DNA of 32,000 nt from Desulfobulbus propionicus DSM 2032 (lineage in GTDB: Bacteria; Desulfobacterota; Desulfobulbia; Desulfobulbales; Desulfobulbaceae): the NCBI RefSeq assembly GCF_000186885.1, contig NC_014972.1, positions 1,380,001 through 1,412,000 of the forward strand, written 5' to 3'. Under the pieces are notes generated by a model. It saw nothing but the letters and a program-made list of their open reading frames with translations, ran no database searches and had not been told where the DNA came from. This document shows, piece after piece, positions 1 to 20,662 of the stretch; the stretch's first letter is position 1; the number at the start of each line of letters is the position of its first letter. The translations under genes were made by a program, and so were the position numbers.

Positions 1-945
1 TGATTGCTCGTCACCGGCGAACAAATAGATGCTTTTGCCGTCCGGCGTCGTTCCCAGCAGTTCACCGGCCTGAACGTTCTTCTTCAACACCACCCGCCGT
101 TCAGGGCGGGCTATGGCCGATTCGGCGGGCAGGATCGGCCTCTTGCCCGCACCGATGCGGTAGAGGTGCTTGCGGAACAGGGCAACCTTATCCTTGTCCC
201 GGAGCTTGAGGTTAGTGTAGGCGGCATGGGGAATCAGACCGCCGATGGTCAGCTTGAGCGGTTGACGGCGCTGCTGGAACATCTCGCCAATCAACATCAG
301 GGTCGACAGCGGCTTGAACAGCATCGAAGCCGAGTAAAAGGCGAGCGAGTTGCGGGCACGGACATGGATGGGCAGGATCGGCGCCTTGGCGCGGGCCGCC
401 AGGCGGAGAAACCCTTTGCGCCAGGGGCCATCCTGAATGCCCTTGGGGGACAGGCGCGACACCTCTCCGGCCGGAAAGATGATCACCGCTTCCTCGTTGG
501 CCAGGGAACGCTCAATGTGACCGATCTGCTCCTTGCGGGTCACGCCGGTCATCACCCTGACCGACAGCAAGCAGGGACGAAGCGGCGTGATTGCCTCCAA
601 CAGGTCGTTGGCGACAATGCGGACATCGGGACGGCAGTCATGCACCAACTTGAGCAGAGCCAGGCCATCCAAGGTGCCGATGGGGTGATTGGCGATGATC
701 ATGACCCGTCCGCTAGCCGGAATATGCTCCCGTTCGCGTTCGGCAACCGTATAGGTGCACTGCAGGGATTCCAACACCTGCTCGACAAAATCCATGCCGC
801 GCAAATGGGGGTACTGCTCGGCAAAACGGACAAAGCGATCCTCGTGGAGAAGACGGCGAAGCACGCTGCGGAGCGGCGAGGAGAGGAGGGGCCGGGCAGC
901 CAGACCAGGAGAATACCGGGTGAGCAGGGCATCAACGGTGAACAT
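1..945 (-). CDS. PlsC-type acyltransferase domain protein, 5' part only (probable OlsF/GlsB-like fused O-/N-acyltransferase of aminolipid synthesis); runs off the left window edge
   Basis: Absent from the ORF track because it has no stop inside the window. Hand translation of the minus frame from ATG 943-945 (GGAGAA 7 nt upstream) gives MFTVDALLTRYSPGLAARP...RVMIIANHPIGTLDGLALL...EAVIIFPAGEVSRLSPKG...APILPIHVRARNS...GTTPDGKSIYLFAGDEQS. It carries the acyltransferase His..Asp block and the FPxGE block. The sequence continues past the acyltransferase domain, as in two-domain aminolipid acyltransferases. The + ORF 4..969 is its antisense shadow. Confidence 0.75.
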   Translation of the reverse strand, partial: MFTVDALLTRYSPGLAARPLLSSPLRSVLRRLLHEDRFVRFAEQYPHLRGMDFVEQVLESLQCTYTVAEREREHIPASGRVMIIANHPIGTLDGLALLKLVHDCRPDVRIVANDLLEAITPLRPCLLSVRVMTGVTRKEQIGHIERSLANEEAVIIFPAGEVSRLSPKGIQDGPWRKGFLRLAARAKAPILPIHVRARNSLAFYSASMLFKPLSTLMLIGEMFQQRRQPLKLTIGGLIPHAAYTNLKLRDKDKVALFRKHLYRIGAGKRPILPAESAIARPERRVVLKKNVQAGELLGTTPDGKSIYLFAGDEQS

Positions 946-1762: not shown

Positions 1763-2177
1763 CTCTCGTGGCAAAGGGCTGTCAAACCGGCATGTTCTGG
1801 CGCGGACCGCGCTCCATGCCGGGGTGAAACGCCTGTCTTGTACCCCCACACTGTTGGTTTTTGGTCAGCGTACCATCAGGCTTTGGTGAGGAGTGGCTCC
1901 CGGCTGCGCTCTTTGGCTCGACGCCCGCTTTGGCCGCACCCGTCGGGATGGGGCGCCAAGACCGTCGCCGCCTGGATGGAAGTCATCTCCACGGCGGTTG
2001 TTACGGCAGGATCAGCAGGCACTTAGGATTCGATCAAGCACCGCGTTGTTGGCCGCACTGACCAAAACATAATCAATCCATAACGTTGGTTTAAAAACAG
2101 GCTCGTAGAGTGGGAGGCAGAACAGAAGACAAAAACGGATTGAGCGCCGATCAGGCGTTGACAGCAGACCCCCAACC

Positions 2178-3071
2178 ATGCGATTCGCCATTTCCTTCAC
2201 CTTCTCTCCCGGCACCCCGCTTTGGCATATTGGCACCCAATGGCTGGGACGGGATGCCCTCAGCGGCCAGAATTTCGCACCACCCAAGGTCCTTGGCCTG
2301 GACGCCGAAACCCTGCGGGAACTGACCCGGATACCTGCCCGCCACGGCCTGCAGGCTCCTCTTGTCCCGCTGTTTCGGCTTAAACCACCTCTGACCGAGG
2401 CAGATCTGAAGGCAGCTTTGGTGGATTTTTCCAGCCGGCAGTCGCCGTTCGCTTTACCGCCCCTTGCCCTCTGCCACGTTAACCGTGCGTTCAGCCTCTG
2501 TCCCTGTCGGCATTTTCCCGCCCTCCAGGCCCTGGCCGCCCGCTGTACCCGTGCCTTCGATCGGCTGCGTGCCCCACTCAATCCGAGCGAACTGGCCAAA
2601 CACAAGGCGCAACCGCTCAGCGGCCAGGAAAAAAGGAACTTGGAGATGTGGGGGAACCCGTACGTTTTTGAGCAATACCGTTTCGCCTTTCCCTTGACCG
2701 GCCGGATGGCCGAAGGCCGTCAGAAGGAGCTGGTGCACAGTGCCCTGCAGACCTTCTTTGGTCCGGCGCTGGCCCAACCTGTCGTGCTGGACAGCCTGTA
2801 CCTTTTTGTCGAACCGGAGCACGGTCAGCCGCTCAGCGGCGTCCACCGGTTTCCCTTGACTCTGCCCTCATCCGAACCTGGGGATCGCATCAGCCATGAC
2901 CCGCAGTTCCTCGACCAAGACCTTCATTCTCGATACCAATCCTGGTCGTGGTCCTGGAGCAGCGGACCCCGTATCGTCAGATCATGCTCGCCCGGCCAAT
3001 CGTTCCCCTGTCCAACAAGGAGATCGGCTACCTGCCCGGCGACAGCCAGTCCAACGGGCTCAGCCACCTGA
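2178..3071 (+). CDS. DUF1045 (2H-phosphoesterase-like, 'phosphonate metabolism'-annotated) family protein with a probably non-native C-terminal tail
   Basis: The N-terminus MRFAISFTFSPGTPLWHIGTQWLGRDA matches the characteristic DUF1045 start. Family-like sequence ends near '...LYLFVEPEHGQPLSGVHRFPL'. The last ~60 codons (...SRYQSWSWSWSSGPRIV...) are low-complexity and read through the PhoH remnant in another frame. No obvious SD precedes the ATG. Confidence 0.7.
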   Translation: MRFAISFTFSPGTPLWHIGTQWLGRDALSGQNFAPPKVLGLDAETLRELTRIPARHGLQAPLVPLFRLKPPLTEADLKAALVDFSSRQSPFALPPLALCHVNRAFSLCPCRHFPALQALAARCTRAFDRLRAPLNPSELAKHKAQPLSGQEKRNLEMWGNPYVFEQYRFAFPLTGRMAEGRQKELVHSALQTFFGPALAQPVVLDSLYLFVEPEHGQPLSGVHRFPLTLPSSEPGDRISHDPQFLDQDLHSRYQSWSWSWSSGPRIVRSCSPGQSFPCPTRRSATCPATASPTGSAT

Positions 3072-3166
3072 TCGAAAAGATGCAGGGGCAGCCGCTCTAT
3101 GCCCATGTCAACCTTGAAAAAGGCGAGCGTTCCGAACTCGCCATGCTTGCCAGTGAACTGCTATGA
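2896..3166 (+). pseudogene. collapsed remnant of a PIN-domain/PhoH-like ATPase (YlaK/PhoH2 type) gene
   Basis: The frame from ATG 2896 gives MTRSSSTKTFILDTN, a PIN-PhoH N-terminal signature. After a frame change near 2940 the sequence reads ...QIMLARPIVPLSNKEIGYLPGD (a PhoH motif), then ...YAHVNLEKGERSELAMLASELL (a PhoH-like C-terminus). About 90 codons remain where roughly 450 are expected. The stop overlaps the next gene's ATG (ATGA at 3163-3166). Confidence 0.6.
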
Positions 3167-3855
3167 GCCTCAAACAGTACCTTCTGTCCAATCGCTCCCC
3201 TCTCCGGACCCTGGTTCCCCTCTGCCTGGCCCTGCTACTCATGGCTGCCGCCGGTTCCCAGTCGCCGGTACTGCGTTACCGTGAGCAAACCGGAGACGAT
3301 CAGTTCATCTTCACGTGGCAGATAAACAGGGACGTTGATGGCATCACCGTGATGCAGCAGCAGGGTGACGAGATGTATAGCAGCCGCAACACTGCCGGAG
3401 GAGCGACCCAGAGCTGGCACTATGTCAAGCCGCCGGCCACCGATGTCCGGGTGGAACGCGACGGCAACCGACTGCGCTTCACCGGCCGCTTTGCCGGTGA
3501 AACGATTGACCGGATCCAGACCATCGATGGACGCCCATGGATGCAACCCCTCTCCTTCAGCCTGCAGCGGTTGGTTGGCGAAGAGCCGCAGGTCGCTCGT
3601 TTTTGGACCATCCGCCCCGATACCCTGGACGTGCTTGCCATGCAGGCGGAGACGGCGGGCAGCGAACCGGTGGCCATCGACAGCGGCGGCACCCGGAGGG
3701 CCAGCAAGGTGGTCATTCGTCCCGAGGGGTTGCTCAGCGCTTTCTGGCAGGCCGAGTACTGGTTCCGTGACGGCGACAACATGTTCCTGCAATATCGGGG
3801 AACCCACGAACCTCCCGGCACGGCCGAAACCCGGATCTGCCTGATTACCCCCTGA
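3163..3855 (+). CDS. secreted hypothetical protein (signal peptide)
   Basis: 230-aa ORF with a hydrophobic N-terminal signal (LVPLCLALLLMAAAGS) and normal, non-shadow amino-acid composition. I recognise no family. Its 3' end overlaps the convergent GT4 gene by 11 nt (3845-3855). Confidence 0.6.
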   Translation: MSLKQYLLSNRSPLRTLVPLCLALLLMAAAGSQSPVLRYREQTGDDQFIFTWQINRDVDGITVMQQQGDEMYSSRNTAGGATQSWHYVKPPATDVRVERDGNRLRFTGRFAGETIDRIQTIDGRPWMQPLSFSLQRLVGEEPQVARFWTIRPDTLDVLAMQAETAGSEPVAIDSGGTRRASKVVIRPEGLLSAFWQAEYWFRDGDNMFLQYRGTHEPPGTAETRICLITP

Positions 3856-4879
3856 CGGCACAGGCCTGGGAACATGGGGCAATGGCGTGATTGATCGCCA
3901 GATTGCCCAGGAACTGGCGGGTGCAGGCCTCCCACGAGTACCGCGCGGCCATCTCCCTGCAGGCAGTGCGGGAAAGGGTGAGCGCTCTCAGGGCCGCTCG
4001 GCCCAGATCGGCATCGAGGCAGCCGTTGATCCCTTCGCGGATCAGGTGGCGGGGGCCGGTCACCGGGTAGGCGGCCACCGGCACGCCACAGGCATTGGCC
4101 TCCAGCAGGACGAGACCAAAAGTGTCGGTCAGGCTGGGGAAGACAAACACATCCGCCGCCGCCATCAGCCGCGCCAACTGTTCGCCGTGCTGGGCACCGG
4201 TGAACCGGACCAGCGGATAGGCCCGGCGCAGACGCGAATACTCCGGCCCATCGCCGATCACCCACTTTTCTCCCGGCAGATCCAGATCCAGGAAGGCGGG
4301 CAGATTTTTTTCCGGGGCCACCCGGCCAACATAGATAAAAAGAGGCCGTTGACAATCAACGGGCAGGCCGGGACGCGGTCGGAACAGGGCGGTGTCGACG
4401 CCGCGTGACCAGGGGACCAGAGGGGCAAAGCCCCGATCCCTCAGTTCGTCGATGATGGTTGGCGCGGCCATGGTGCGGCAGGCGGCGCCATGAAAGTGTT
4501 TGAGCAGGGCATAACTGAAGGCAAGCGGCATTGGCACGCGCATCCGCAGGTATTCGGGGAAGCGGGTGTGATACGAGGTGGTGAAGGCAAGGCCAATCCG
4601 GCGGCAGGCGGATCGGGTTGCCCATCCGAGCGGTCCCTCGGTGGCGATATGCACGGCATCGGGTTGCCATTCGGCCAGCAGGCGGCGGATGGCGGCCGGA
4701 CTGGTCAGCGACAGCCTGATTTCCGGATAGGTGGGGCAGGCCACTGTTTTAAACCGGTCCGGGGTGAGGGTGAGGAGGTCGTGCCCCCAGCCGCGCAGCG
4801 TTTCCGCGGTCCGCGTGAGCGTGGTGACGACGCCGTTAATTTGGGGATGCCAGGCATCGGTGGCGATACAGATTTTCAT
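3845..4879 (-). CDS. GT4-family (GT-B, 'glycosyl transferase group 1') glycosyltransferase, SqdX/glycolipid-synthase-like
   Basis: ORF 3845..5020 trimmed to ATG 4879. MKICIATDAWHPQINGVVTTL is typical of lipid-glycosyltransferase N-termini, and the C-terminal block reads FPSLTDTFGLVLLEANACGVPVAA (the E..G....EA.A.G.PV motif). It overlaps the upstream gene by 44 nt. Confidence 0.85.
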   Translation of the reverse strand: MKICIATDAWHPQINGVVTTLTRTAETLRGWGHDLLTLTPDRFKTVACPTYPEIRLSLTSPAAIRRLLAEWQPDAVHIATEGPLGWATRSACRRIGLAFTTSYHTRFPEYLRMRVPMPLAFSYALLKHFHGAACRTMAAPTIIDELRDRGFAPLVPWSRGVDTALFRPRPGLPVDCQRPLFIYVGRVAPEKNLPAFLDLDLPGEKWVIGDGPEYSRLRRAYPLVRFTGAQHGEQLARLMAAADVFVFPSLTDTFGLVLLEANACGVPVAAYPVTGPRHLIREGINGCLDADLGRAALRALTLSRTACREMAARYSWEACTRQFLGNLAINHAIAPCSQACAVRG

Positions 4880-5648
4880 GTTGAACGGAAACCGCCTCGC
4901 GCAGGGGTTGATGGGTGGGCCATTCGATGATTCCCAGTTGGCCACAGGAATTTTCGGCCAAGGCTGTGCAGCTTTCCACCCAGTCGCCGGTGTTGGTGTA
5001 GAGCGTTGTGCCGATTTCACGAATCCCGGCCCGATGGATATGGCCGCAGATCAGGCCATCCACCCGGTGGGCCGCCGCCTCCCTGGCCACCAGGGCATCG
5101 AATTGGCCGATGCAATTGACCGCCCTTTTGGTCTGGTGTTTCAGCCAGGCAGAGAGGGTGCGGGGTCCGCGCTTTTTTGCAGGGAGTCGGATCGTGCACC
5201 AGCGGTTGCAGCGCAGCAGCAGGGCGTAGATCACCGAGCCCGTCGTGGCCAGCCAGGGACAGTGGCGGATCACCGGGTCAAAGGTATCGCCGTGCAGCAC
5301 CAGATAGCGGCGCCCGTCCACGGTCTGGTGGATGGCCGTGTTCTGGATGCGGATGTTGCTGATGGTGAGGCCGTCGAAGGCGCGCAGCAGGTGATCGTGG
5401 TTGCCGGGCAGGTAGATGACCTGGGTGCCGCCTGCCGCCTTAGCCAGCACGGTCTGGACGATGCGGTCATTGACCGCCGGCCAGTGCCAGGCCTTGTTCG
5501 CCTGGACCAGGTCAAAAATATCGCCGACCAGGTAAAGAAAATCGGAGTCGGTGTGGAGCAGGAAATCGAGCACCTGTTCGTTTTTCAGGCACCTCGTGCC
5601 CAGGTGGAGATCGGAGATCCAGATGGATCGGAAATGGTGCTGCGGCAT
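4836..5648 (-). CDS. LpxH-family (UDP-2,3-diacylglucosamine diphosphatase-like) calcineurin-type metallophosphoesterase
   Basis: The metallophosphoesterase motif series is complete: SDLHLG, VGDIFD, PGNHDH, LHGDTFD, CGHIHR. A strong SD (AAAGGAGG) ends about 7 nt upstream of ATG 5648. I cannot tell whether this is the housekeeping lpxH or a paralogue. Confidence 0.85.
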   Translation of the reverse strand: MPQHHFRSIWISDLHLGTRCLKNEQVLDFLLHTDSDFLYLVGDIFDLVQANKAWHWPAVNDRIVQTVLAKAAGGTQVIYLPGNHDHLLRAFDGLTISNIRIQNTAIHQTVDGRRYLVLHGDTFDPVIRHCPWLATTGSVIYALLLRCNRWCTIRLPAKKRGPRTLSAWLKHQTKRAVNCIGQFDALVAREAAAHRVDGLICGHIHRAGIREIGTTLYTNTGDWVESCTALAENSCGQLGIIEWPTHQPLREAVSVQHENLYRHRCLASPN

Positions 5649-5821
5649 GGTGCGCCCTCCTTTGGGTTGTGCCGATGCGGGTCCGGGGCAGTTGGTGCCG
5701 GCCCTGCACGTCGATCGCCCGCCTTGTTTGCACCCTAACCGGGCAGCGTTACCCTTTGATCAGGGAGCTGTTTTTTTCCGATTGAAGGTTTGTTGCGGTT
5801 TGATGAGCCGAGCCGCGGTGG

Positions 5822-6874
5822 CTAAATACGATGCTGATGGACCTGGAAGGAGAGGATGGCGCCGGTGACCATGCTGCGGCCAAAATGGAGGAACAGGATG
5901 AGCCAGAGGGCCTTGAGGCCAAGGATGAGCAGCGGGTCGAGCAGCACCCGCAGGCCAGCGGCCATGTCGGGTCGGGGCAGACTGGGCTGGGGCAGGAGCA
6001 CACAGAGCAGGGCGCCAAAGACCATGGCCGCCACGGCCATCTTCTGATAGGCGGTGATGGCCGAGAATCCGCGAAAATCGGCGCGCAGCATCTCGGAGAG
6101 CACGCGCCAGATTTGGGAAACCATGAGGCTCAGCAGAAAGGCGCTCCGGTACCTGCCCTGCAGGAACCAATGGCAGGCGACCAGGCCGGTGACCGTATAG
6201 AGCAGGCAGGTCAGCCCCTGCACCGGCACCAGTTTGACCCCGGCCAGCCCGCCCTCGTAGACGGCCTTCTTGGTGGGGGCGGTGAAGACCACCGCCATCC
6301 GGTCGAGCAGTCTGCGGGCCAGAGGACCGCACTGATCCAGCGGTTTGCCGTAGCAGCAGCCAAAACTGAGACAGGCCAGGCGGCCAAGCCCCTCGCCGAT
6401 GATGTAGCCGATGGCCAGGGCGGCCAGCACGATCTGCCCGCTCAGCCGGGGCGTTGCCGTCAGCCAGCAGCCGAGATTGATCGCCAGGATGAGCACGGGG
6501 GCACTCACCAGCCCACAGAAAAAGGCCCCTCCGATGGTGAAGGTGTACCCTTTCTTTTCCACCAGGCGGGCAATCCGCCGGCTTGCCGGGACACAGAGCC
6601 CGACGATCAGCGTCAAGAGTGCCAGCAGCGGCACCATGGCCATGTGGGCCGCCTGCCCAAGGACGAGCACAAAGACCAGGCCGACGATGGCGGCACTGGC
6701 CAGAATCAGCCCGTACCAGGTGAAGTTGATGCCCTGCCAAAGGCTGCCTTCACCTCGGCGGACCGGCACGGCGGCCAGCACCTGAAAACGATCGGAGGGG
6801 AGATACCGCCAGCCAAGCGTGATGGCCACGGCGAACAGGGCCGCGGTGGTGCAGAGAAAGAGCGCTTCGGTCAT
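5822..6874 (-). CDS. Lgt-family (prolipoprotein diacylglyceryl transferase-like) polytopic membrane protein
   Basis: Multi-TM protein containing 'GEGLGRLACLSFGCCYGKP', the Lgt-family G-R-x-G-C...GCC-x-G signature. The track ORF starts at TTG 6883, but I prefer ATG 6874 (MTEALFL...). There is no clear SD. It lies 33 nt downstream of the PSD-type gene. Confidence 0.75.
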   Translation of the reverse strand: MTEALFLCTTAALFAVAITLGWRYLPSDRFQVLAAVPVRRGEGSLWQGINFTWYGLILASAAIVGLVFVLVLGQAAHMAMVPLLALLTLIVGLCVPASRRIARLVEKKGYTFTIGGAFFCGLVSAPVLILAINLGCWLTATPRLSGQIVLAALAIGYIIGEGLGRLACLSFGCCYGKPLDQCGPLARRLLDRMAVVFTAPTKKAVYEGGLAGVKLVPVQGLTCLLYTVTGLVACHWFLQGRYRSAFLLSLMVSQIWRVLSEMLRADFRGFSAITAYQKMAVAAMVFGALLCVLLPQPSLPRPDMAAGLRVLLDPLLILGLKALWLILFLHFGRSMVTGAILSFQVHQHRI

Positions 6875-6907
6875 AATGATCAAGAGGATGATGTGATCAA
6901 GTCGGTT

Positions 6908-7909
6908 TCACAACCGCCGTTTGCCGGCAATGGTTGAACGTACCCGGACATCGGTTTCCACCACCGGCCGTCCCAGGCCCAGCGAGAATCGACTCAGGAC
7001 ATCGGCGCGCCGCCGGTTGCACACCAGATCGTCGCTGAAGGTGACCACCTCCCGTTGAAAGAGGAGGATGTCGGTGGAACTGCCCGGCCGGTACAAGCTT
7101 TTCGGGCAACCCTTCTCCAACCGCATGCCCTTGGCGATCGGCTGCGGCGCGTCGTAGGCGTGGGTCGAGTAGCACTGGACGATGTCCCCGATCATCAGGG
7201 CCACCACCTCGATCATCGCCACCAGACCAACCTGGGTGCCCCCCTGTACGTCGGTGTCGATGATGGTCACCACCCGCCGGTTCTTGGCATGCAGGGAGGC
7301 CAGGGCAATCTGCGCCCGCGGGTTGCAGGAGTGGTACTGGCCGTCGATCTGGTAGAAGTCGATCACCTCGCCGCTCACCGGCACATGGTTGTAGTGATAT
7401 TTGTCCGGGGTCAGACGGAAGATGGCGAAATCGCCGCCAACGAAAAACGGAGGCCAGGGCAAATCCTCGCCCAGCAGTTCCGGGGCGGAGAAAAATTTTT
7501 CCTTGATGAACAGCTCCGGTGTCTCCTCCAGGGAACCGATCAGCACCTTGGCGTCGGCGGGCGCGACGATGGTCTCGTTGGCCTCGTCCATGGGACGGCA
7601 CTGCCAGTAGCGGATCTGCCGTTCAAACACCTGCCGGGGGGTGGTGAAACTGGCAGCCGGGGCTACACACTCCCGCCAGTCCACCCCCATTCGCTGCAGC
7701 AGTGCCGGACCCCGACGGCTATCCACCGGCAGGGTGCAGTCGAACTGGAGATACCCGAGCACACTGGACATCCGCTCCGAGGTCAGAGCGCGGAACAGGC
7801 TGGGTGCCTGCTCACGCACCCGGTTGTAGAGCAGGTCGATGAACCGGTCGGCGAACAGGTGTTCGCTGACGATTTCCCCTGTTTCGCGGACGATGTACTG
7901 ATGCTGCAT
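6908..7909 (-). CDS. psd: phosphatidylserine decarboxylase family proenzyme (long N-terminal type)
   Basis: Track ORF 6908..8365 trimmed to ATG 7909 (RBS GGGAGAAG), because the upstream 152 codons overlap the preceding gene out of frame. MQHQYIVRETGEIVSEHLFADRFIDLLY is the N-terminus of the long bacterial PSD type. 'YRPGSSTDILLF' aligns with the self-cleavage G-S-(S/T) site that generates the pyruvoyl group. Confidence 0.85.
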   Translation of the reverse strand: MQHQYIVRETGEIVSEHLFADRFIDLLYNRVREQAPSLFRALTSERMSSVLGYLQFDCTLPVDSRRGPALLQRMGVDWRECVAPAASFTTPRQVFERQIRYWQCRPMDEANETIVAPADAKVLIGSLEETPELFIKEKFFSAPELLGEDLPWPPFFVGGDFAIFRLTPDKYHYNHVPVSGEVIDFYQIDGQYHSCNPRAQIALASLHAKNRRVVTIIDTDVQGGTQVGLVAMIEVVALMIGDIVQCYSTHAYDAPQPIAKGMRLEKGCPKSLYRPGSSTDILLFQREVVTFSDDLVCNRRRADVLSRFSLGLGRPVVETDVRVRSTIAGKRRL

Positions 7910-7920
7910 GGATCTTCTCC

Positions 7921-10278
7921 CTATGCGGTGACAGGGCCGTGCTGCTGTTCGAGATGGACAATCAGCAGGGCGAGCAATATGAGCAGATGGATCTCCCGGG
8001 CCGAGGCAGAGCCGTTCACCACCCGATGGCCGGCTTCGCGGATGAACAGCGGGGCAGGCACGCTGCCGAGCAACCGCTCCTTGAGGGCGCCAACGGCCTG
8101 ATCGGTGCACCCCTCCAAGCGAACGCCATCCGTCATCAGGGTTTCCAAGCCGTCGTGCAGGTGCCGCTGGCACAGATCGGTGCGGTAATAGTTCTCGGCG
8201 GCCTGGTTGAAGGCTTGGGTGCCCACCCGCATGGGATCGGTCTCCCGCCCCAGGGTGGTGAGGATGTCGCCGGTCAGCCGGGCCGCTGCCGTGGGTTCGG
8301 TGCCCTCCAGCATGGCGTCGACACGGTCGAGGAGCGACACCGCCTCCTGGCCGTCCATGGCGCATTGCTGCCGGAGCAGCGCCAGACAGGCCCGGTGATA
8401 GGCGGCCACTTCGATGCGCAGGTATCCCCGGTAGCGGCGACTGGGCCGCTGCCGGTCCGCCAGGGCGAGGATTCGGCGCAGCAGGGTGTTGCGGCTGTCC
8501 GCCCGGATAAACACCGTGGGTACACCGATGGCGGTGGCAAAAAAGATCTGCCGCCGCTCGCTCTCGGTGCAGGGGTCGTCGGGGATATCGGCGTGGCGGA
8601 CAGTGCCCGCAAGCACCCAGCGATAGGCCAGGCGGGTGACCAGGGTCTGCAGGTCGACGGCCAGGGCAAAGGTCGGGCCGAGGTCGGGAAAGAGCGAATA
8701 GTGCCGGCCCTCGAATCCGGAGAAACCAAAGGCGGCCAGGGTCCGCATCCGGTAGGGCAGGTAGATCGCCATGCGGCTGTCATAGACCCCCATCTCGGTC
8801 AGATCCTGTTTCAGCCGCTCTTGGTTCCCCATGACCCCGTCCAGGGCCGGGCTCTGCTCGACGCTCTGCAGGGCTACCAGGTAATCGATCAGCCGGACGT
8901 CGGGCAGGAAGTCACCGCGCAGCCGTAGCAGGGTGCTGGTCAACCGGTCGAACCACTGGGGGCCCACCGGGGTGAAGCTGTGACCGCAGAACCGCAGCGC
9001 CGCCTTCTTCTTCCATCGGCGCCACAGCATGCGCAGGTGGGTGTAGTCCAGTTCATGGGGCAAATAGCCCATCACCTTTTCCGGATGGAAGTCGCTGAAG
9101 CTCAGGCGATGGGGCGCGGCCGAGCAGGTGGTGACAAAGAGCGGCAGGAAGTGCTCGACGATCTTGATCACCAGATCGCCGAAGTACTTTTCGCAGATCG
9201 CGCCTTCCGGGCGCTGGTACCACCCGCTGAGCAGGCGACTGCCCAGGGTGATGTGGGTGCCGTTGTTGGCCAGGGAAGTGGAACTGGTGTTGGGGAGCAC
9301 CACCAGATTGTTGACGATGATCCCGGCCTCCTTGAGTTTGGCGATGGTGTTGAGCTGACTGCGGGACAGGGTGCGGTGGCAGAGCCCCATATACGCCTTC
9401 TTCTTCTCGCCGCGCGGCCAGCCGGACAGGCAGGGGTTGACAAACAGCTCGCGGTAGAACTGATCGGAGATGAGCTCGTTGAGGGCCTTCTGGCGGGCCG
9501 GCGGGTTGGGCGCCAGATACAGGCGGCACTGCTGGCCGTGGTGCTCCAGGCGGAACGCCTGGTTGGCATACTGGATGAGCAGTTGCAGGATCAGGAACCG
9601 GCGGCTGGTTTCCCGGGCGGTGCTGCGGCCGGGGAGGGTGGCCGCATCGCCGCTGGCCAAGGAAAAGCTGGTCACTTCGGGCGAACAGTTGTCGCTGATC
9701 AGGTGAGCCATCAGCCGCTCCCCGGTCTGGAGGAGCAGCGGCTCGGCAGGGTCGGCCTGCCCGAGGGCATCGGCCAGCGCCAGTTTGAGCAGATAGCTGA
9801 CCGGCACCCGTAGCCAGGGCTCTCCCTCGCGGGAAAAGAGAAAGGAATCGATATCCTGGCGTCGAGGACCCGCTGGATTGGCCTTGTCGGCCAGCAGATC
9901 GTGGTGCAGGATGGAGGCGGCATGGGTGGAGAGCAGGCGGCGGGGGAATCTGACCCAGGAGTTCTCCCAGATCTGGGTCTGCTGCGCCCCGAGAAAGGCA
10001 TCGAGATCGGCCAGCAGATGGGGACTGAGGTCGCCGCGCCGGGCCCGCAGGGTCAGGTTGTTGTAGTAGCGCGAGCCGAGGATGGTCAGGGGGAGATCGA
10101 CCTCGGTGGATCGGCCTGCAACGGCCACCTGAAACTCGTTTTCCACCCCCACGGTGACATCACCACCGGTGAACGGTTGCGGGTTGGCTTCCCGCTGCAG
10201 GTGCAGCCGGAACGGCTCGGTTCGGTGCAGCAACTCGTTCTGGTCTCCGGAGATCGGGGTCGGCAGGGATACGGTCAT
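7921..10278 (-). CDS. large (785 aa) soluble protein of unknown function; no family recognised
   Basis: Long ORF with normal, non-shadow composition. It ends 11 nt before the PSD-type gene on the same strand. The only faint motif hints are 'VGVENEFQV' near the N-terminus and 'LANNGTHITLGS' mid-protein, reminiscent of carboxylate-amine ligase (GCS2/GshA-like) metal and substrate blocks. I see no TM helices or signal peptide. Confidence 0.8.
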   Translation of the reverse strand: MTVSLPTPISGDQNELLHRTEPFRLHLQREANPQPFTGGDVTVGVENEFQVAVAGRSTEVDLPLTILGSRYYNNLTLRARRGDLSPHLLADLDAFLGAQQTQIWENSWVRFPRRLLSTHAASILHHDLLADKANPAGPRRQDIDSFLFSREGEPWLRVPVSYLLKLALADALGQADPAEPLLLQTGERLMAHLISDNCSPEVTSFSLASGDAATLPGRSTARETSRRFLILQLLIQYANQAFRLEHHGQQCRLYLAPNPPARQKALNELISDQFYRELFVNPCLSGWPRGEKKKAYMGLCHRTLSRSQLNTIAKLKEAGIIVNNLVVLPNTSSTSLANNGTHITLGSRLLSGWYQRPEGAICEKYFGDLVIKIVEHFLPLFVTTCSAAPHRLSFSDFHPEKVMGYLPHELDYTHLRMLWRRWKKKAALRFCGHSFTPVGPQWFDRLTSTLLRLRGDFLPDVRLIDYLVALQSVEQSPALDGVMGNQERLKQDLTEMGVYDSRMAIYLPYRMRTLAAFGFSGFEGRHYSLFPDLGPTFALAVDLQTLVTRLAYRWVLAGTVRHADIPDDPCTESERRQIFFATAIGVPTVFIRADSRNTLLRRILALADRQRPSRRYRGYLRIEVAAYHRACLALLRQQCAMDGQEAVSLLDRVDAMLEGTEPTAAARLTGDILTTLGRETDPMRVGTQAFNQAAENYYRTDLCQRHLHDGLETLMTDGVRLEGCTDQAVGALKERLLGSVPAPLFIREAGHRVVNGSASAREIHLLILLALLIVHLEQQHGPVTA

Positions 10279-10372
10279 CGCTCGTTGTCGGTTGCAGGGA
10301 TCGGTATCGTTCGCTGGCCAGCAGCATAGCGGGGGCGTGTTTGCTTCCGGCTTTGATCCTGTCAGGTTTGCG

Positions 10373-12295
10373 TCAGGAAGCGATCATGTCGGACAGCAGC
10401 CGGACTGGCGTCACCTGCTCGCGTTCACCCTTCCTGCCGGTCTCAAGCTCACCGGTCACCGCAGGTGCAGAATCCGTCATGATCGCGGCCTCGGGCAGGA
10501 ATCCATCCTCTGTACTCTCCAGGCGCATCGCCTCCAATTCCCTGACGTTGCCGTCGAGGAGGTCGCCGAGCTGCAGGGCAATCTCTTCGGCGTATCGGCG
10601 GGCATCGGCAGAAAACTGCAGTACCCCAGCCGCCGCCGCATGCACCTCGGTGATGCGGGTCGACACCTCCCTGGTATTCTCTTCGGTGGCGGCGCTCAGG
10701 GCAACGATGCCTCCGGTCAGTTCGCGCTGCCCGTCCACGGCCGAGCCAATGGCAGCGGTTACCTGGTGCAGTTGCTCCGCCCCGTGTTCCAGGGTGTCGA
10801 TCGAGGTGATGAACGAGGTGCAGATCGCATTGATGGCCTCAATCTTGGTCAGGACGTCCTGGGTGGCATGGGCCGTATTCTGGGAGAGTTTCTTGACCTC
10901 TTCGGCGACCACGGCAAATCCGCGCCCATGCTCGCCGGCCTTGGCCGCTTCAATGGTGGCATTGATCGCCAGGATGCGGGTCTGCACGGTGATGGCCTGC
11001 ACCGTGGCCACGATGCCGTCAATTTCAGCCACCGACCGGCTCAGACCTTCAAGCATGTGGCGGGCCTGGTCGATTTCCGCCCGCATGGCCCTCTCCTCCC
11101 GGTTTTGGACCGCCAACTGCTGGTGGATGCCATCCACCACCGTGCTGATCTGCTGGGATGCCGCGCTCACCTGGTCGGTCCGCTTGGCAGTATCGCCGGC
11201 CAGCACCGCCACATTCTCCGCGGCCTGTTTGGTTGCCTCGGCCACTCCCTGCAGGGTATGGGACATGGTGGCCATCTGCCCGGCCCGCTCATTGAGGCGG
11301 TGGATGGCCTCGGTCATTGTCCCGACCAGGGTTTCAATCCGCCGCCGGTCTTTGGCCTTGCTTGCCTCGAGCTGTTGCAGGGACAGCAGGGCTTCCCGGA
11401 AAGAGCCGATGGCCCGGGCCAGCACCCCGATCTGATCGCGTCGCCGAGACCAGGGTATCTCGGGGAACTGGCCGGCGCTCAACGCTTCCACCGCCCGCGT
11501 CAGGTGATGCAGCGGCCGTTCAACGATGCTCCGGGTGAGGAAGAAGAGGACCAGCACATTAGCTGCAATCGCCGCCAGGCCAACCCCGAAACTGAAGCGC
11601 CGCTGCTGCCTGCTGGCCTCCTGCATGCGCTGCTCCTGCTGGGCGATCTGATCGATGTAGCCCAGAATCTCGGTGCGGCTTTTTTCCGCCTCGATGCTTT
11701 TATCGGCGGCAAGGCCGCGCAAACGGCCAATGCCTTCCTCTATCGCCGTTGGACGGCTTGCCTCGCTCTGCACCGTGGCCAGCAGCCGTTGCCGGTCCGT
11801 CTCGGCTTGGCTGCTCACCAGGAGAAGCCTGTCGATATCGGCGGTAAAAGCGCCTCCGGCATCAAAGAGGCCATAACTCAGCACCGGTTGATCGTTCTCG
11901 ACGGTGACCACCATCAGCCCATTGGCCAGATCGCGCTTCTCGGTGCGCGAGTAGAGCGCGGCGTAGCTTTCCCGACCGGAGAGGCGTTGGCGCTCTTGGA
12001 TCTGAAATTGTCGTTCGACCTGCGTAAGAACGCTGGCCTTCGGGTCGGTGGTGAACAGTTTCGGCAGCCCCATGAACTCGTTTTGCAAGGTGACGATCGT
12101 CTGGCGCAGATTGGCATCCACCTGGTCCCGGATCGCCAGCACATCCGCCATCATCCCTTCCAGCCGGGCGGTGGCCCGGTGATTGACGAACAACAGAGCT
12201 CCGATGCAACAGTTGGAGGCCAGGGCGACACCCAGTAACAGTTTGCATCCCACGGTCAGCCAGCCGGTGCCGGCGGTCGATGTTTTTCTGGTCAT
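10373..12295 (-). CDS. methyl-accepting chemotaxis protein (2 TM helices, ~200-aa periplasmic sensor, HAMP, MCP signalling domain)
   Basis: The MCP hairpin core reads 'QTRILAINATIEAAKAGEHGRGFAVVAEEVKKLSQNT'. The HAMP-like segment reads 'RPLHHLTRAVEALSAGQF...IGVLARAIGSF'. The track start (12325) is a GTG. ATG 12295 gives MTRKTSTAG... and forms an ATGA overlap with the upstream stop. Confidence 0.9.
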   Translation of the reverse strand: MTRKTSTAGTGWLTVGCKLLLGVALASNCCIGALLFVNHRATARLEGMMADVLAIRDQVDANLRQTIVTLQNEFMGLPKLFTTDPKASVLTQVERQFQIQERQRLSGRESYAALYSRTEKRDLANGLMVVTVENDQPVLSYGLFDAGGAFTADIDRLLLVSSQAETDRQRLLATVQSEASRPTAIEEGIGRLRGLAADKSIEAEKSRTEILGYIDQIAQQEQRMQEASRQQRRFSFGVGLAAIAANVLVLFFLTRSIVERPLHHLTRAVEALSAGQFPEIPWSRRRDQIGVLARAIGSFREALLSLQQLEASKAKDRRRIETLVGTMTEAIHRLNERAGQMATMSHTLQGVAEATKQAAENVAVLAGDTAKRTDQVSAASQQISTVVDGIHQQLAVQNREERAMRAEIDQARHMLEGLSRSVAEIDGIVATVQAITVQTRILAINATIEAAKAGEHGRGFAVVAEEVKKLSQNTAHATQDVLTKIEAINAICTSFITSIDTLEHGAEQLHQVTAAIGSAVDGQRELTGGIVALSAATEENTREVSTRITEVHAAAAGVLQFSADARRYAEEIALQLGDLLDGNVRELEAMRLESTEDGFLPEAAIMTDSAPAVTGELETGRKGEREQVTPVRLLSDMIAS

Positions 12296-14097
12296 AACAG
12301 GGAGGTTGTTTCTGGTTGAGGACACAGCAAGGCACGGTGTGTTTCACTGTCCTGTGGTTCGCGTAGAACGCTTGGGGATGCTAGTTCGTGGATATAAAGG
12401 CTGCTGCCGGCGATCCGTTTGGCGCGGTGTTTGGCGAACGACGCCTCTTCCGAAATATCGATGGGGCAGCGGTGCAACGAAGGACACACCACCACCGCGC
12501 CCACCGAAAGGGTCATGGTGCCATAGCGCTGTTCCCGCCCTTCCCGATCCAGCGCGACGATGACACTGCCGATGTGGCCGTTGTACAGACCACCGATGCT
12601 TTCATCGAATTGGCGGAGGATGCGCTCGACAATCTGTTGCCAGCCACCACTGCGAAAGATGACCACAAAATCGTCACCACCGATGTGGCCGATGAAATCG
12701 GTCTGGTCGTCGATATTGGCGGTGAGCAGTTCCGCCAGGAAGCGCAGCACCTTGTCGCCCCGGCTGAAGCCGAAAAAGTCGTTGAATGGTTTGAAGTTGT
12801 CGAGGTCGAAATAGCAGACGGTGAACGGAACATCGGCGCGGAACAATTTCTGCAGCTGTTGCTGGATCGGCACGTTGCCCGGCAGCATGGTCAACGGGTT
12901 GGCATGCCGGGCGCGGCTGACCTGCAATTTGGTGATTTCATGGAGGAGATCGATCAACCGCCCCGTACCGGCCAGTTGGCCGTCATCGAGGATGATGAAC
13001 TCATCGGTGTGGATGTTCAAGGAAGTGGTCAAGCGGTAGCTGGCCTCCTCCAATGACATGCGCTTGTCCACCTGCATGACGTTGCGGTTGATGAAACGGA
13101 GGATCGGCTGCTTGCCATAGAGTTCCTTGCCGTAGAGACTGGCATAGAGGTTCATGAACTCACGGCGCAGGACCAGACCCAACACCTCGTTTTCATGGAC
13201 AACGACGATCGATTCCAGATCGGGTGTCGAGGTGAACAGCGCCCCCACCTCCAAAACCTTGGCCGTCGCCTGGACGGAAACGGCCGGCCGCACCAGCATC
13301 TCCATGGCTGGAGATTCCTCCTCGGCCTGGCGGAGTTCCTTCCTGAACAACCTGGAGGCAATGGTCACCGGCGGTATCGGCACCGGCCGGCCAAAGTAGT
13401 AGCCCTGGAGCATTTCCACCCCGATCTTGCGCAGGGTGGCATACTCCCCCTCGGTCTCCACGCCTTCGGTGATTACCCTGCATCCCAGGGCGGTGGCCGT
13501 TTTCAGAATGGTGGACACAAACTGCTGTTTGGTGCGGTCCTGATCGACCCCCTGAATGAAATGACGGTCGATCTTGACGATATCCGGCCGGATCTCGGAC
13601 CAGAGCTTGAGCCCCGAATACCCGGCGCCCAGATCGTCGAGGGCCACCCTAAACCCCATCTCCTGGTAATGGATCATCGCCTGCTGCATCAGCCGGATAT
13701 CCTCGACCGGATGGGTTTCGGTCAGTTCGATAATCAGCTGGGAAGGGTTGAGCCGGGCCTGCTCGACCAATTCCAAGGTCAGACCTTCGCGAAAATGCTC
13801 ATGCGTCAGGCTGTAGGGGTCGACGTTGATGAACAGCCGGCCGGGCAGGTTGAGTTGGGCGAAACGATGAATGACCATTCTTCGGCAGAGCAGGTCGAGT
13901 TCAGCCAGCCGATCGGCCTTGGTCGCCGCCTCGAATAGACGGGTGGGCGAATAGAGCACGGTGTTGACCGGACCGCGTACCAGGCCTTCATAGCCATAAA
14001 TTTGCCGGGTTTGCAGGTGGATGATCGGTTGAAAATGGACGGTGAGTTTCTGCTGCCGGATCACCGTCTCCAGGAGGGTTTCTGTTTTCTGGTCCAT
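12292..14097 (-). CDS. EAL - tandem CBS - GGDEF(GGDDF variant) c-di-GMP signalling protein
   Basis: EAL-domain motifs are present: YEGLVR, IELTE, DDLGAGYSGL, KIDRHF, EGVETE. Two CBS-like modules follow (…IVVVHENEVLGLVLRREF…, …FIILDDGQLAGTGRLIDLL…). The GGDEF domain reads 'YFDLDNFKPFNDFFGFSRGD...FIGHIGGDDFVVIF'. There is no RxxD I-site just upstream of GGDDF. Confidence 0.9.
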   Translation of the reverse strand: MDQKTETLLETVIRQQKLTVHFQPIIHLQTRQIYGYEGLVRGPVNTVLYSPTRLFEAATKADRLAELDLLCRRMVIHRFAQLNLPGRLFINVDPYSLTHEHFREGLTLELVEQARLNPSQLIIELTETHPVEDIRLMQQAMIHYQEMGFRVALDDLGAGYSGLKLWSEIRPDIVKIDRHFIQGVDQDRTKQQFVSTILKTATALGCRVITEGVETEGEYATLRKIGVEMLQGYYFGRPVPIPPVTIASRLFRKELRQAEEESPAMEMLVRPAVSVQATAKVLEVGALFTSTPDLESIVVVHENEVLGLVLRREFMNLYASLYGKELYGKQPILRFINRNVMQVDKRMSLEEASYRLTTSLNIHTDEFIILDDGQLAGTGRLIDLLHEITKLQVSRARHANPLTMLPGNVPIQQQLQKLFRADVPFTVCYFDLDNFKPFNDFFGFSRGDKVLRFLAELLTANIDDQTDFIGHIGGDDFVVIFRSGGWQQIVERILRQFDESIGGLYNGHIGSVIVALDREGREQRYGTMTLSVGAVVVCPSLHRCPIDISEEASFAKHRAKRIAGSSLYIHELASPSVLREPQDSETHRALLCPQPETTSLL

Positions 14098-14677: not shown

Positions 14678-15031
14678 ATGAACGAAGCCCTGGCACGGAG
14701 TTTTTTGCAGGCGGTCGTATTTTTTCTCTTCCTCCTGTGCGCACCATTCTCGTTGTTCAGTTCATCCAGTTGGTCTCAATCCGGCTCAGAAACCTCGGTG
14801 GCCATACGAGCAACCCCATTTGTGCCGCCAGCCCTTTCCTATGCCTCTGTTTTTGAGAACTATCATGGCTACCAGGATCAAGAGGTCGCTTCCTGGCTGG
14901 AAGCCAACGAAACCGTTGGACACATTGGTGGCTGGCGGTCTTACCTTGAAGAAGCATCCCAATCTCAACAAGATCAAATACCTCCGGCCGAAGACGCTCA
15001 CCACCCTTCCGGACATGGAGGCAAACCATGA
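14678..15031 (+). CDS. small secreted protein with a His-rich C-terminal tail; putative periplasmic copper-module accessory protein
   Basis: Track ORF 14609..15031 trimmed to ATG 14678 (GGGAG 6 nt upstream). It has a hydrophobic signal-like N-terminus (AVVFFLFLLCAPFSLF) and a conserved-looking 'WLEANETVGHIGGWRSYLEE' segment. The tail reads 'DAHHPSGHGGKP'. An ATGA overlap links it to the downstream TolC-like gene. Confidence 0.6.
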   Translation: MNEALARSFLQAVVFFLFLLCAPFSLFSSSSWSQSGSETSVAIRATPFVPPALSYASVFENYHGYQDQEVASWLEANETVGHIGGWRSYLEEASQSQQDQIPPAEDAHHPSGHGGKP

Positions 15032-16461: not shown

Positions 16462-16495
16462 GCGCAGGGAAAGACAGAGAGTTAAAGGAAGATCG

Positions 16496-17908: not shown

Positions 17909-17990
17909 GTCATCGAGGAGGACGTATTTTCAAGATGTTATCCCGTGCTAACGAAGTCAAGCGAATTGTTCTTTGCAAAGGAGGCCACGC

Positions 17991-18326
17991 ATGAAGAAAC
18001 ATATCTTTTCCCTGATGGTTGCTGTGCTTGCTGGAGGAGGTGGTGTGCTGGTTGAGGGAGTGGCGCACAGTGCCGCGAATAATCAAGAGTACAATAAAAC
18101 AGGCCAAACAGAAGGCCTGACCTCCGGGCAAGTGCGCAAGATCGACAAAGAAGCAGGGAAGTTGACCCTCAAACACGAAAGAATCGCCAACCTGAACATG
18201 CCCCCGATGACCATGGTGTTCAGGGTGAAGGAGAAAAGCATGTTGAATGCTCTTCAGGTCGGTGACACGATCCTCTTTCACGCGGTTGACAGGAATGGTG
18301 TGCTGACGATAACCGAGATCAAATGA
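17991..18326 (+). CDS. cusF: CusF-family periplasmic Cu(I)/Ag(I)-binding protein
   Basis: Track ORF trimmed to ATG 17991 (RBS AAAGGAGG). It has a signal peptide. 'GKLTLKHERIANLNMPPMTMVFRV' has the His/+8/+11/+13 spacing of the E. coli CusF H36/W44/M47/M49 site, with Met in the Trp position. Confidence 0.85.
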   Translation: MKKHIFSLMVAVLAGGGGVLVEGVAHSAANNQEYNKTGQTEGLTSGQVRKIDKEAGKLTLKHERIANLNMPPMTMVFRVKEKSMLNALQVGDTILFHAVDRNGVLTITEIK

Positions 18327-18716
18327 GGTGAGCCATGCAGGCGCTTCTCTTTTCGGGCGGATACCTCAGTCTTGCGAAATCGCGTTGATAGTCAGCCTGC
18401 ATGCCTTTTGGGACGGCAGTTTGCCGGTTCACATTCCGCCAGGCTGGGATAGATTTCCAGGACTGTTGACAAGATCCTTCCTGATCGATTCCATTGGGGT
18501 TCGGGGCACCTTGCGCATTGTCCGGAAGTGGTGTCTTGCAGTTGCATGGAAGCGCACGTCCCGCACATCACAAAAAAGCAGGGGGGACTTGAGAAAATGA
18601 GTGACAGCTCCATGAATTTGCTCTAATTATTTGCATAACTAGCCGATGGCGCAGGGAACCCCATGCGGTTGTGTTTGCTCAGCAGTGCCAATCAAATTTC
18701 ACACCGTGAAAAGGGC

Positions 18717-20656: not shown

Positions 20657-20662
20657 GGCGCC

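Follow-up and report, generated by a model that had tools for sequence, protein, structure and literature searches.

The question raised by the first 10.4 kb of a 32,000-nucleotide stretch of Desulfobulbus propionicus DSM 2032 (contig NC_014972.1, positions 1,380,001 to 1,412,000; this whole stretch is called the window, and its G+C content is about 62%) is which lipid its minus-strand genes make. An original prediction, drawn from the sequence alone, had taken five tightly packed genes as a single pathway matching none known, built around an orphan protein of 785 residues, here called X785. We find instead that the five genes form two units. One is a known pair, PlcP-Agt. The other is an uncharacterised three-gene operon, here called the triad, encoding X785, a homolog of phosphatidylserine decarboxylase (PSD-like) and a homolog of the diacylglyceryl transferase Lgt (Lgt-like). 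The triad is, in all probability, a lipid head-group pathway for phosphate stress. With a modest lean in its favor, we read positions 1 to 10.4 kb as a co-regulated membrane-lipid renovation island for phosphate scarcity, made up of olsF (with the gene h253), plcP-agt and the triad, in which the triad would make a lipid resembling the N-butyramide cysteine glycerols (BACys). The original prediction was right to see polar-lipid head groups as the theme of the region, and right, in our judgment, to name the orphan as the key unknown and a plausible builder of the carboxylated head group on which the PSD-type enzyme would act. What it missed were the phosphate-starvation context, the probable ligase-type fold of the orphan and the likely inverted topology of the Lgt paralog. 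The five genes are as follows.

7921-10278, minus strand: X785, orphan of 785 residues, first gene of the triad, without a Pfam, NCBIfam or PDB sequence match
6908-7909, minus strand: PSD-like pyruvoyl-dependent decarboxylase proenzyme, 333 residues, PF02666
5822-6874, minus strand: Lgt-like integral membrane protein, 350 residues, about nine transmembrane helices, PF01790
4836-5648, minus strand: PlcP-type metallophosphoesterase, 270 residues, 44% identical to the PA3219-type protein of Pseudomonas aeruginosa
3845-4879, minus strand: Agt-type glycosyltransferase of family GT4, 344 residues, 48% identical to the Agt1/PA3218-type protein of P. aeruginosa

Translations confirm all five reading frames, as do the public gene calls for contig JAJUHU010000011.1 (GCA_029267735.1), which the window matches; the nearest cultured relatives of the window proteins in homolog searches are Desulfobulbus species. 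The predicted spacing is confirmed as well, with gaps of 11 nt between the X785 and PSD-like genes, 33 nt between the PSD-like and Lgt-like genes, and 173 nt before the metallophosphoesterase gene, which has the sequence AAGGAGG 7 nt upstream of its ATG and overlaps the GT4 gene by 44 nt. Assignments to PF02666, PF01790, Metallophos and GT4 also stand.

The label of LpxH-family pyrophosphatase given to the metallophosphoesterase does not survive. Homologs were sought by tblastn in a plasmid collection that contains some mislabelled chromosomal records. The P. aeruginosa match is 44% identical and gapless over 232 residues (E 2e-67), and the Sinorhizobium meliloti homolog is likewise 44% identical, while identity to Escherichia coli LpxH is 25% (E 3e-10). 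LpxH is the best NCBIfam match, at 45 bits, against LpxH equivalog cut-offs of 134 and 190. After the gene of 270 residues matched in P. aeruginosa come a family-1 glycosyltransferase gene, translationally coupled to it, and an adenylate cyclase gene. Because this order fits the layout PA3219 (plcP) - PA3218 (agt1) - cyaB described by Jones et al. (PMC8528852), the match was assigned to PA3219/PA3218. The window GT4 protein is 48% identical over 337 residues (E 2e-103) to the glycosyltransferase downstream of PlcP there. Established PlcPs are mutually 46-47% identical, and Agt1 makes monoglucosyl-diacylglycerol in E. coli (PMC8528852). These identities, the lower identity to LpxH and the operon order identify 4836-5648 and 3845-4879, at the level of sequence, as a PlcP-Agt lipid-renovation pair, with a predicted phospholipase C role for the first. 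In lipid renovation during phosphate scarcity, PlcP cuts phospholipids to diacylglycerol, which Agt glycosylates (PMC4796936, PMC8528852, PMC9239053). A plcP-type gene with a GT4 gene downstream occurs also in 17 related loci. The pair lies downstream of the triad in Desulfobulbus, upstream of it in Desulfopila and Desulfocapsaceae, and is absent elsewhere; it is a module separable from the triad.

For the triad, we queried six-frame translations of 82 non-redundant loci with the window proteins. Of the 72 loci with room for it, 71 have a PSD-like gene after X785, an Lgt-like gene comes next in 68 of 69, and the order X785, PSD-like, Lgt-like is always the same. Such clustering is far beyond chance. 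Conservation of neighborhood, proposed as a check on the five-gene pathway, thus keeps X785, PSD-like and Lgt-like together as a unit, while the PlcP-like and GT4 genes are linked to it in about one quarter to one third of loci. The triad occurs in Desulfobulbales, Desulfuromonadales, Geobacteraceae, Syntrophales and Desulfobacterales (including the isolate Desulfonema ishimotonii), and also in Candidatus Brocadia, Nitrospira, Bacteriovoracaceae and SAR324. Its presence in anammox Planctomycetota and in Nitrospirota as well suggests that it has spread horizontally among anaerobic and microaerophilic sediment and reactor bacteria. Cultured carriers are Desulfobulbus elongatus, Desulfobulbus alkaliphilus, Desulfogranum, Desulfuromonas carbonis, Geoalkalibacter halelectricus and Desulfonema ishimotonii. 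The X785 family has at least 2947 homologs, all named "hypothetical" and none with a Pfam domain. A scan with its hidden Markov model (HMM) returned 827 cluster representatives, many of them fragments, and the species genomes scanned include at least 583 that carry the family.

An unbiased neighbor analysis, in which all open reading frames (ORFs) flanking the triad at the 82 loci were clustered and the recurrent clusters annotated, places the triad among genes of phosphate supply and phosphorus-free lipids. Counts refer to the 50 loci of at least 15 kb (the long loci). The family-less secreted protein h230 is found in 20 of the 50, an Agt-like GT4 in 19, a PlcP-like protein in 15, PhoH2 in 15, OlsF in 10, PstB in 9, DUF1045/TIGR03223 in 9, PhoU in 8, PstA/C in 7, alkaline phosphatase (PhoA) in 6 and PhnM in 4. 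PstB was counted at 55% identity or more because its cluster was mixed with other ATP-binding cassette (ABC) ATPases; the PstB, PhoU and PstA neighbors pass equivalog cut-offs. In 40 of the 50 long loci, at least one Pho-type gene (pst, phoU, phoA, phoH or phn) or gene for a phosphorus-free lipid lies within 10 kb. The triad of Desulfuromonas carbonis has genes for OlsF, alkaline phosphatase, PPK2 and CHAD as its neighbors. Since the partners vary between lineages, functional rather than inherited linkage is favored.

Several loci show variations on the arrangement. Full triads outside Desulfobacterota include those of L033 (Candidatus Brocadia), L056 and L073 (Nitrospira) and P0460 (Candidatus Wunengus). 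A contig from a metagenome-assembled genome (MAG), L053, carries two X785 paralogs (L053:1-2256 and L053:9890-12319) about 7.6 kb apart, with a large glycosyltransferase-containing ORF and an OlsF-like gene between them; PSD-like and Lgt-like genes follow the second copy only. Loci of the Desulfuromonadales type (L001, L002, L045, L063, L071 and L081) have a small DUF2062 membrane protein of 157 residues directly after the Lgt-like gene, and that of D. carbonis has a hydrophobic ORF of 53 codons (L001:13421-13582) between the PSD-like and Lgt-like genes; both may encode lineage-specific accessory subunits. L066 (MAG WY2.bin112) is the sole locus with downstream room where PSD-like and Lgt-like genes do not follow X785. 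Its contig, at about 1.7x coverage, is rich in pst, phoU, phoA and phoH genes, and may be either a misassembly or a genuine exception.

X785 itself gave no match to Pfam, NCBIfam or PDB sequences, whether searched as a single protein or as a 37-member profile, and none of the 37 members matched Pfam even at an E-value of 10. Of the profile and fold searches that had been proposed for it, the former therefore yielded nothing, and the latter yielded marginal matches to gamma-glutamylcysteine ligases (GCL). A first AlphaFold2 model, from 37 sequences, had a pLDDT of 76 and weak Foldseek matches, coherent only for Dop, PafA and yeast GCL. A second, from an 89-sequence alignment, reached a pLDDT of 89.3 and a pTM of 0.93. 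Its top PDB match, though marginal, is Francisella tularensis GshA (3nzt, E 0.03, probability 0.91), and the rest of the five best are two chains of E. coli gamma-glutamylcysteine synthetase (2d32, best E 0.06, probability 0.89), PafA (4bjr, probability 0.91) and yeast GCL (3ig5). The residues invariant in the family are G44-E46-E48-Q50, E105, N339-G340-H342, S386-A-A-P389 and E523-R525. Four of these groups are collinear with motifs of YbdK and GshA: G44-x-E46-x-E48-x-Q50 with G15-E17-E19-Q21, N339-G340-x-H342 with G134-x-H136, S386-A-A-P389 with S165-A-A-S-P169, and E523-x-R525 with E237-x-R239. X785 probably has a carboxylate-amine ligase fold, judging from the model. To our knowledge, the characterised members of this superfamily (GS, GCL, YbdK, PuuA, PafA) all activate the gamma-carboxylate of glutamate with ATP, and X785 is a candidate ATP-dependent ligase of the GCL/PafA-type fold, joining a glutamate gamma-carboxylate to an amine.

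The PSD-like protein scores 118 bits against PF02666 (cut-off 22, E 5e-34) and falls under all eight NCBIfam equivalog cut-offs for phosphatidylserine and archaetidylserine decarboxylases, its best score being 123.3 against 371. In an alignment of E. coli Psd with 72 family members, the PAD, YHxxH and PGSST motifs are invariant, matching D90, H144/H147 and G253-S254 of E. coli Psd. From this invariant D-H-S triad of residues and the G-S motif, self-cleavage is predicted at G276-S277 (Ser codon at 7079-7081), and the protein should be active as a pyruvoyl-dependent decarboxylase, acting on an alpha-amino acid whose amine is free.

The Lgt-like protein matches PF01790 at 41.1 bits (cut-off 24.9), and reaches 26.8 bits against the Lgt equivalog model TIGR00544, where the cut-off is 118.9. 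Across 72 family members it keeps the equivalents of E. coli Lgt residues Y26, G142-R143, R239, E243 and R246, which serve phospholipid binding and the catalysis of diacylglyceryl transfer (PMC4728403). H103 of the HGGL motif, the proposed site of the lipobox peptide in Lgt (PMC4728403), is not conserved. Cysteine takes the place of N146 and E151 within an invariant motif, GRLxCxSFGCCYG, so that the protein does not fit the signature of Lgt proper, GRLGNFINGELWG, which includes both; mutation of E151 inactivates E. coli Lgt, in which N146 belongs to a conserved hydrogen-bond network (PMC4728403). There is one extra transmembrane helix at the N terminus and one at the C terminus. Loops on the side of the head domain and the signature carry on average 17.7 lysine plus arginine residues (minimum 11) in the 72 members, against 1.1 (maximum 4) for the alternate loops. 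E. coli Lgt has its head domain and active site on the periplasmic side and positive charge on its cytoplasmic loops (PMC4728403). Since the charge pattern is reversed, the Lgt-like protein is predicted to be inserted inverted, with its catalytic cavity open to the cytoplasm, where a small cytoplasmic acceptor would suit it better than an exported prolipoprotein. For the Lgt family, the one chemistry that has been characterised has a thiol as acceptor (PMC4728403). Given the residues that are kept, transfer of a diacylglyceryl group from phosphatidylglycerol (PG) to a thiol is the natural prediction, and the protein is a candidate phosphatidylglycerol:thiol diradylglyceryl transferase.

Summed, the three predicted activities lead to one class of product, a glycerol-S-cysteine with an N-linked, decarboxylated gamma-glutamyl group. 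In the proposed mechanism, the Lgt paralog, with its active site on the cytoplasmic side, would move the diradylglyceryl group of PG onto the thiol of free cysteine or of gamma-Glu-Cys, forming a thioether and releasing glycerol-1-phosphate, by which phosphorus would be recovered. X785, using ATP, would form an amide between the gamma-carboxylate of glutamate and the amine of cysteine. The PSD-like enzyme would then strip the alpha-carboxylate from the lipid-tethered gamma-glutamyl residue, leaving a 4-aminobutyramide, much as PSD acts on the serine of phosphatidylserine. The product would be S-(diradylglyceryl)-N-(4-aminobutanoyl)cysteine, with the head group C7H14N2O3S. An alternative order would fit equally well, in which S-lipidated cysteine is decarboxylated before glutamate is ligated, giving gamma-Glu-cysteamine of the same formula.

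A lipid whose head group matches this formula has been reported. Glu + Cys - H2O - CO2 is C7H14N2O3S, and its thiol-minus-hydride cation has a computed mass of 205.0641; the head-group fragment of the tentatively named BACys lipids is m/z 205.064, C7H13O3N2S+ (Ding et al. 2024, PMC11181052). On this agreement the predicted triad product was matched to the BACys head group. In the sulfate reducer Desulfatibacillum alkenivorans under phosphorus limitation, phosphatidylethanolamine (PE), PG and cardiolipin are almost fully replaced by glucuronosyl glycerolipids and sulfur-containing aminolipids, and the BACys lipids have the same diacylglycerol, acyletherglycerol and dietherglycerol cores as the phospholipids (PMC11181052). 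That report proposed no BACys genes, and we found none in the literature searched. By analogy, the two lipid classes co-induced in D. alkenivorans may mirror two adjacent modules of the window, with BACys falling to the triad and the glycolipid to PlcP-Agt. That the triad product is a BACys-type thioether aminolipid we take to be an even call, tilting if anything toward yes. The fuller proposal is finely balanced: that the triad is a complete BACys-type pathway, widespread in sediment and bioreactor anaerobes and combining an Lgt paralog working "inside-out" on a small-molecule thiol, a cryptic gamma-glutamyl ligase and a PSD-type enzyme.

On the far side of plcP-agt are further genes. They are the following.

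3163-3855, plus strand: h230, secreted protein of 230 residues without a family, convergent with agt
2178-3071, plus strand: DUF1045/TIGR03223 "putative phosphonate metabolism protein", PF06299 and TIGR03223
995-1756, minus strand: h253, 253 residues without a family, directly upstream of olsF
1-945, minus strand: N-terminal 315 of the 587 residues of OlsF, with Acyltransf_2 and Acyltransferase domains; the gene exits the window

The acyltransferase at 1-945 had been called OlsF-like. The full 587-residue protein on the matching contig scores 830.6 bits against the equivalog model orn_lipid_OlsF (NF052615; cut-off 620), and by that score the window holds the start of a bona fide, bifunctional ornithine-lipid synthase. 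PlcP-Agt and OlsF together mark the region as a phosphorus-sparing lipid island, in which the olsF module (with h253) would supply ornithine lipid and plcP-agt would turn phospholipid into diacylglycerol and then glycosylated diacylglycerol. The DUF1045 ORF matches PF06299 (E 1e-43) and TIGR03223 (E 7e-59). The signal peptide of h230 ends ...LLLMAAAG/SQS, and the protein has no Pfam match even at E 1 and no NCBIfam family. With homologs no more than 10 kb from the triad in 26 of the 82 loci, it is the commonest non-triad neighbor; one possibility is that it handles the new lipid in the periplasm.

Further details of these neighbors were noted. The gene for h253, which has no family match, sits directly upstream of olsF across the Desulfobulbus clade (7 loci). 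The DUF1045 ORF is missing from the public gene calls of the contig, which give short ORFs on both strands, and it extends about 70 codons past the end of the family model. The h230 gene usually lies just downstream of the Lgt-like or agt gene, on either strand.

Regulatory sequence was examined in the same region, where X785 has an upstream region of its own, 94 nt long, after the stop codon of a chemoreceptor gene. The elements found are these.

10340-10376, minus strand: operator-like element upstream of X785, four half sites in 11-bp phase
10361-10376: CTGAY-N7-TRAY site of X785
5748-5763, minus strand: phased repeat CTGATCAAAGGGTAAC, about 100 nt upstream of plcP
2058-2073: CTGAY-N7-TRAY site of the DUF1045 gene; three half sites, CTGAC-N6-ATAAT-N6-ATAAC, span 2058-2085
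1864-1879 and 2000-2015, minus strand: CTGAY-N7-TRAY sites in the h253-olsF promoter region

The half sites of X785 read CTGAC gcaaac CTGAC aggatc AAAGC cggaag CAAAC, and TATGCT, a -10-like hexamer, lies at 10323-10328. In an upstream alignment the first pair of half sites is kept at about -95 in loci of the Desulfobulbus clade. The pattern YTGAY-N6-YTGAY has 46 sites in the 2.7 Mb of loci, 11 of them directly upstream of X785; Syntrophobacter-type loci have instead two or three CTTCAC repeats with the same phasing. In the window, CTGAY-N7-TRAY occurs 7 times where 1.24 are expected, a number reached in none of 100 shuffles, and five of the seven sites are about 95-260 nt upstream of the start codons of four transcription units. 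The repeat before plcP is kept upstream of the PlcP-like gene in L007, L008, L012 and L014, and partly in L010 and L011. An element upstream of the DUF1045 gene in L010 and L016, CTGACGCAATCGTAAC, is the same as that of the window. Desulfopila-type plcP promoters carry three heptamers with 4-nt spacing. The Pho box is CTGTCAT-N4-CTGTCAT, which this repeat architecture resembles, and we classify it from its sequence as a putative OmpR/PhoB-type operator. The data support one such predicted operator type common to the X785, plcP, DUF1045 and h253-olsF units, and we infer that PhoB controls the triad and its neighbors. A scan of the region for sigma-70 promoters and terminators was uninformative, and no sigma-54-type promoter could be recognised by eye upstream of X785.

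A number of points weigh against the pathway as proposed. In ten of the 50 long loci, neither phosphate nor lipid genes lie nearby, and the neighborhood counts are phylogenetically non-independent. For the orphan, the fold match is marginal, with Foldseek E-values no better than 0.03 and TM scores of 0.26-0.41. In hhalign comparisons of X785 with E. coli GshA, YbdK and an 18-member YbdK alignment (a poor profile, its homolog search having given close enterobacterial sequences only) the best probability was 0.8%; the sole stretch aligned, non-significantly, was the helix directly after the ExR strand, in X785 and in YbdK/GshA. For the Lgt paralog, the loss of N146 and E151 may mean that its chemistry differs, and the inverted topology is a prediction from charge bias. 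Neither the CTGAC nor the CTTCAC repeat turned up ahead of pst or phoA genes in the loci examined, so the regulator need not be PhoB. The BACys structure is itself tentative, being derived from tandem mass spectrometry (MS2) only, with the thioether link to glycerol unstated (PMC11181052). No Desulfatibacillum is among the matches listed from a Desulfobacterales-type profile search, most of which are unnamed and which include Desulfonema, Desulfosalsimonadaceae, Desulfococcaceae and Candidatus Wunengus; a literature search on Desulfatibacillum and PSD found nothing.

With these points in mind, other products were considered. The triad might make a different phosphorus-free or head-group-modified glycerolipid, such as an O-linked diacylglyceryl-serine or -homoserine that is decarboxylated and amidated to yield a scaffold like that of betaine lipids, or an N-glutamylated derivative. 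Synteny, phosphate context and enzyme families would fit this equally, the remodelled site of the Lgt-like protein (N146 and E151 changed to cysteine, H103 lost) makes the acceptor nucleophile uncertain, and the link to BACys, a further point against our proposal, is a match of formula. We nevertheless regard such a lipid as unlikely, for a thiol is the acceptor in the only Lgt-family chemistry characterised (PMC4728403), the folds that match X785 best are specifically those of Glu-Cys ligases, and the literature searched holds no O-linked lipid of fitting composition from these phyla.

Retention of phosphorus is a second alternative. X785 would ligate glutamate to the amine of phosphatidylserine (PS) or PE, or an amine to the carboxylate of PS, and the PSD-like enzyme would decarboxylate the result, with the Lgt-like protein as a PG-dependent transferase or a flippase-like partner. 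The usual substrate of PSD-family enzymes is indeed serine bound to a phospholipid, the arginines that bind phosphate are kept in the Lgt-like protein, and the 10 long loci without phosphate-stress neighbors would be accommodated. Remodelling of aminophospholipids is nonetheless improbable: the strong association with pst, phoU, phoA and phn genes, PlcP-Agt and OlsF, and the promoter repeats common to X785, plcP and olsF, favor the sparing of phosphorus, and the homolog of a diacylglyceryl transferase is left without a role.

Known Lgt substrates are proteins, and a third alternative is that the Lgt-like enzyme lipidates a dedicated one, either a cytoplasmic target or h230, which has a signal peptide and is so frequent a neighbor, while X785 and the PSD-like protein modify or supply the lipid donor. 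We think this more improbable still. The cleavage site of h230 is of the signal-peptidase-I type (AAG/S), without a lipobox cysteine, and h230 is absent from most loci; the HGGL histidine that binds the lipobox is not conserved and the predicted active-site side is cytoplasmic; and the ligase and decarboxylase go unexplained.

That the neighbors are simply housekeeping psd, lgt and lpxH brought together by chance, the scenario by which the original prediction could have fallen, is hardly credible and was rejected, as Pfam does place the genes in those families yet their NCBIfam equivalog scores (123 against 371 for PSD, 27 against 119 for Lgt, 45 against 134 for LpxH) lie so far under the cut-offs that the proteins are paralogs rather than the canonical enzymes, as had been foreseen, the "LpxH" gene is a PlcP ortholog, residues essential for Lgt are absent from the Lgt-like protein, and synteny with the orphan is kept across phyla.

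Further features were noted elsewhere in the window. Immediately upstream of the triad, at 10373-14097 on the minus strand, are genes for a methyl-accepting chemotaxis protein (HAMP and MCPsignal domains) and an EAL-CBS-GGDEF protein, which overlap by 34 nt. Of the 50 long loci, 13 have EAL/GGDEF proteins near the triad and 29 have sigma-54-type response regulators there; both are generic domain families. Precomputed Pfam matches on the matching contig indicate a copper-resistance-like cluster at about 15028-25241 on the plus strand, with these members.

15028-16461, plus strand: outer-membrane factor
16496-17908, plus strand: multicopper oxidase
about 17991-18326, plus strand: CusF-like protein
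19460-20656, plus strand: membrane-fusion protein of the resistance-nodulation-division (RND) type
20663-23824, plus strand: ORF of 1053 residues, likely an RND pump

G+C falls to 0.49-0.55 around 14-19 kb of the window.

PlcP-Agt and OlsF are of kinds already known; what is new is the triad, as a variant of lipid renovation with a testable product prediction. Phospholipid replacement is a major microbial response to phosphate scarcity, and the operon offers a concrete candidate gene set for the sulfur- and nitrogen-containing lipids recently found in anaerobes, with cultured carriers available. If the proposal is true, a thioether aminolipid made straight from PG would be a third lipid-renovation chemistry, and the Lgt paralog would be a lipidator of small molecules with reversed orientation. 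A function would also be gained for an orphan family that at least 583 of the scanned species genomes carry, and anoxic sediments would gain a genetic marker for phosphorus stress and for lipid biomarkers.

Compared with known systems, the window pair is an ortholog-level match to the PlcP-Agt pathways of S. meliloti (SMc00171), Phaeobacter MED193, SAR11, P. aeruginosa (PA3219/PA3218) and Burkholderia cenocepacia (BCAL2364-65), with the same translationally coupled order of plcP then agt and, likewise, a predicted direct-repeat operator upstream. It differs in its anaerobic, Desulfobulbus-like host and in adjoining a second, uncharacterised lipid operon. The Lgt-like protein belongs to the same Pfam family as Lgt (E. 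coli, PDB 5AZB/5AZC, PMC4728403) and shares its phospholipid-binding and catalytic residues but, unlike Lgt, is always encoded with a ligase and a decarboxylase. Psd and the PSD-like protein have in common the Pfam family, the autocatalytic D-H-S triad, the G-S cleavage motif and, by prediction, a lipid-tethered substrate, an alpha-amino acid attached by its side chain. The PSD-like protein differs in an N-terminal extension of about 90 residues, and in place of phosphatidylserine it is proposed to act on a thioether lipid, at the gamma-glutamyl (or cysteinyl) residue. For X785, the GCL/YbdK/PafA-Dop superfamily gives the best and sole coherent fold matches, though marginal ones, and the putative metal- and ATP-site motifs GxExE, GxH, SAAxP and ExR are invariant in it and collinear with those of GCL/YbdK. 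Members of that superfamily have 370-520 residues, against 785 in X785, which has large conserved insertions and an all-helical C-terminal domain; its membership is unsupported at the sequence level, there being no signal from HMM or profile-profile searches.

As a pathway, the triad has a functional analog in BtaA/BtaB, which make the betaine lipid diacylglyceryl-trimethylhomoserine (DGTS): like the predicted product of the triad, this has a phosphorus-free head group derived from an amino acid, attached through a non-phosphate bond and induced by phosphate limitation. The enzymes are unrelated, since BtaA and BtaB use S-adenosylmethionine to form an ether link from diacylglycerol, followed by methylation, whereas the triad is predicted to form a thioether from PG, followed by ligation and decarboxylation. 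The known lipid nearest to the predicted product is BACys, which agrees in the head-group formula Glu + Cys - H2O - CO2, comes from the same phylum, and is induced by phosphorus limitation only, alongside glucuronosyl lipids that would be products of PlcP-Agt. BACys is a lipid without assigned genes, and the triad is a set of genes without an assigned lipid.

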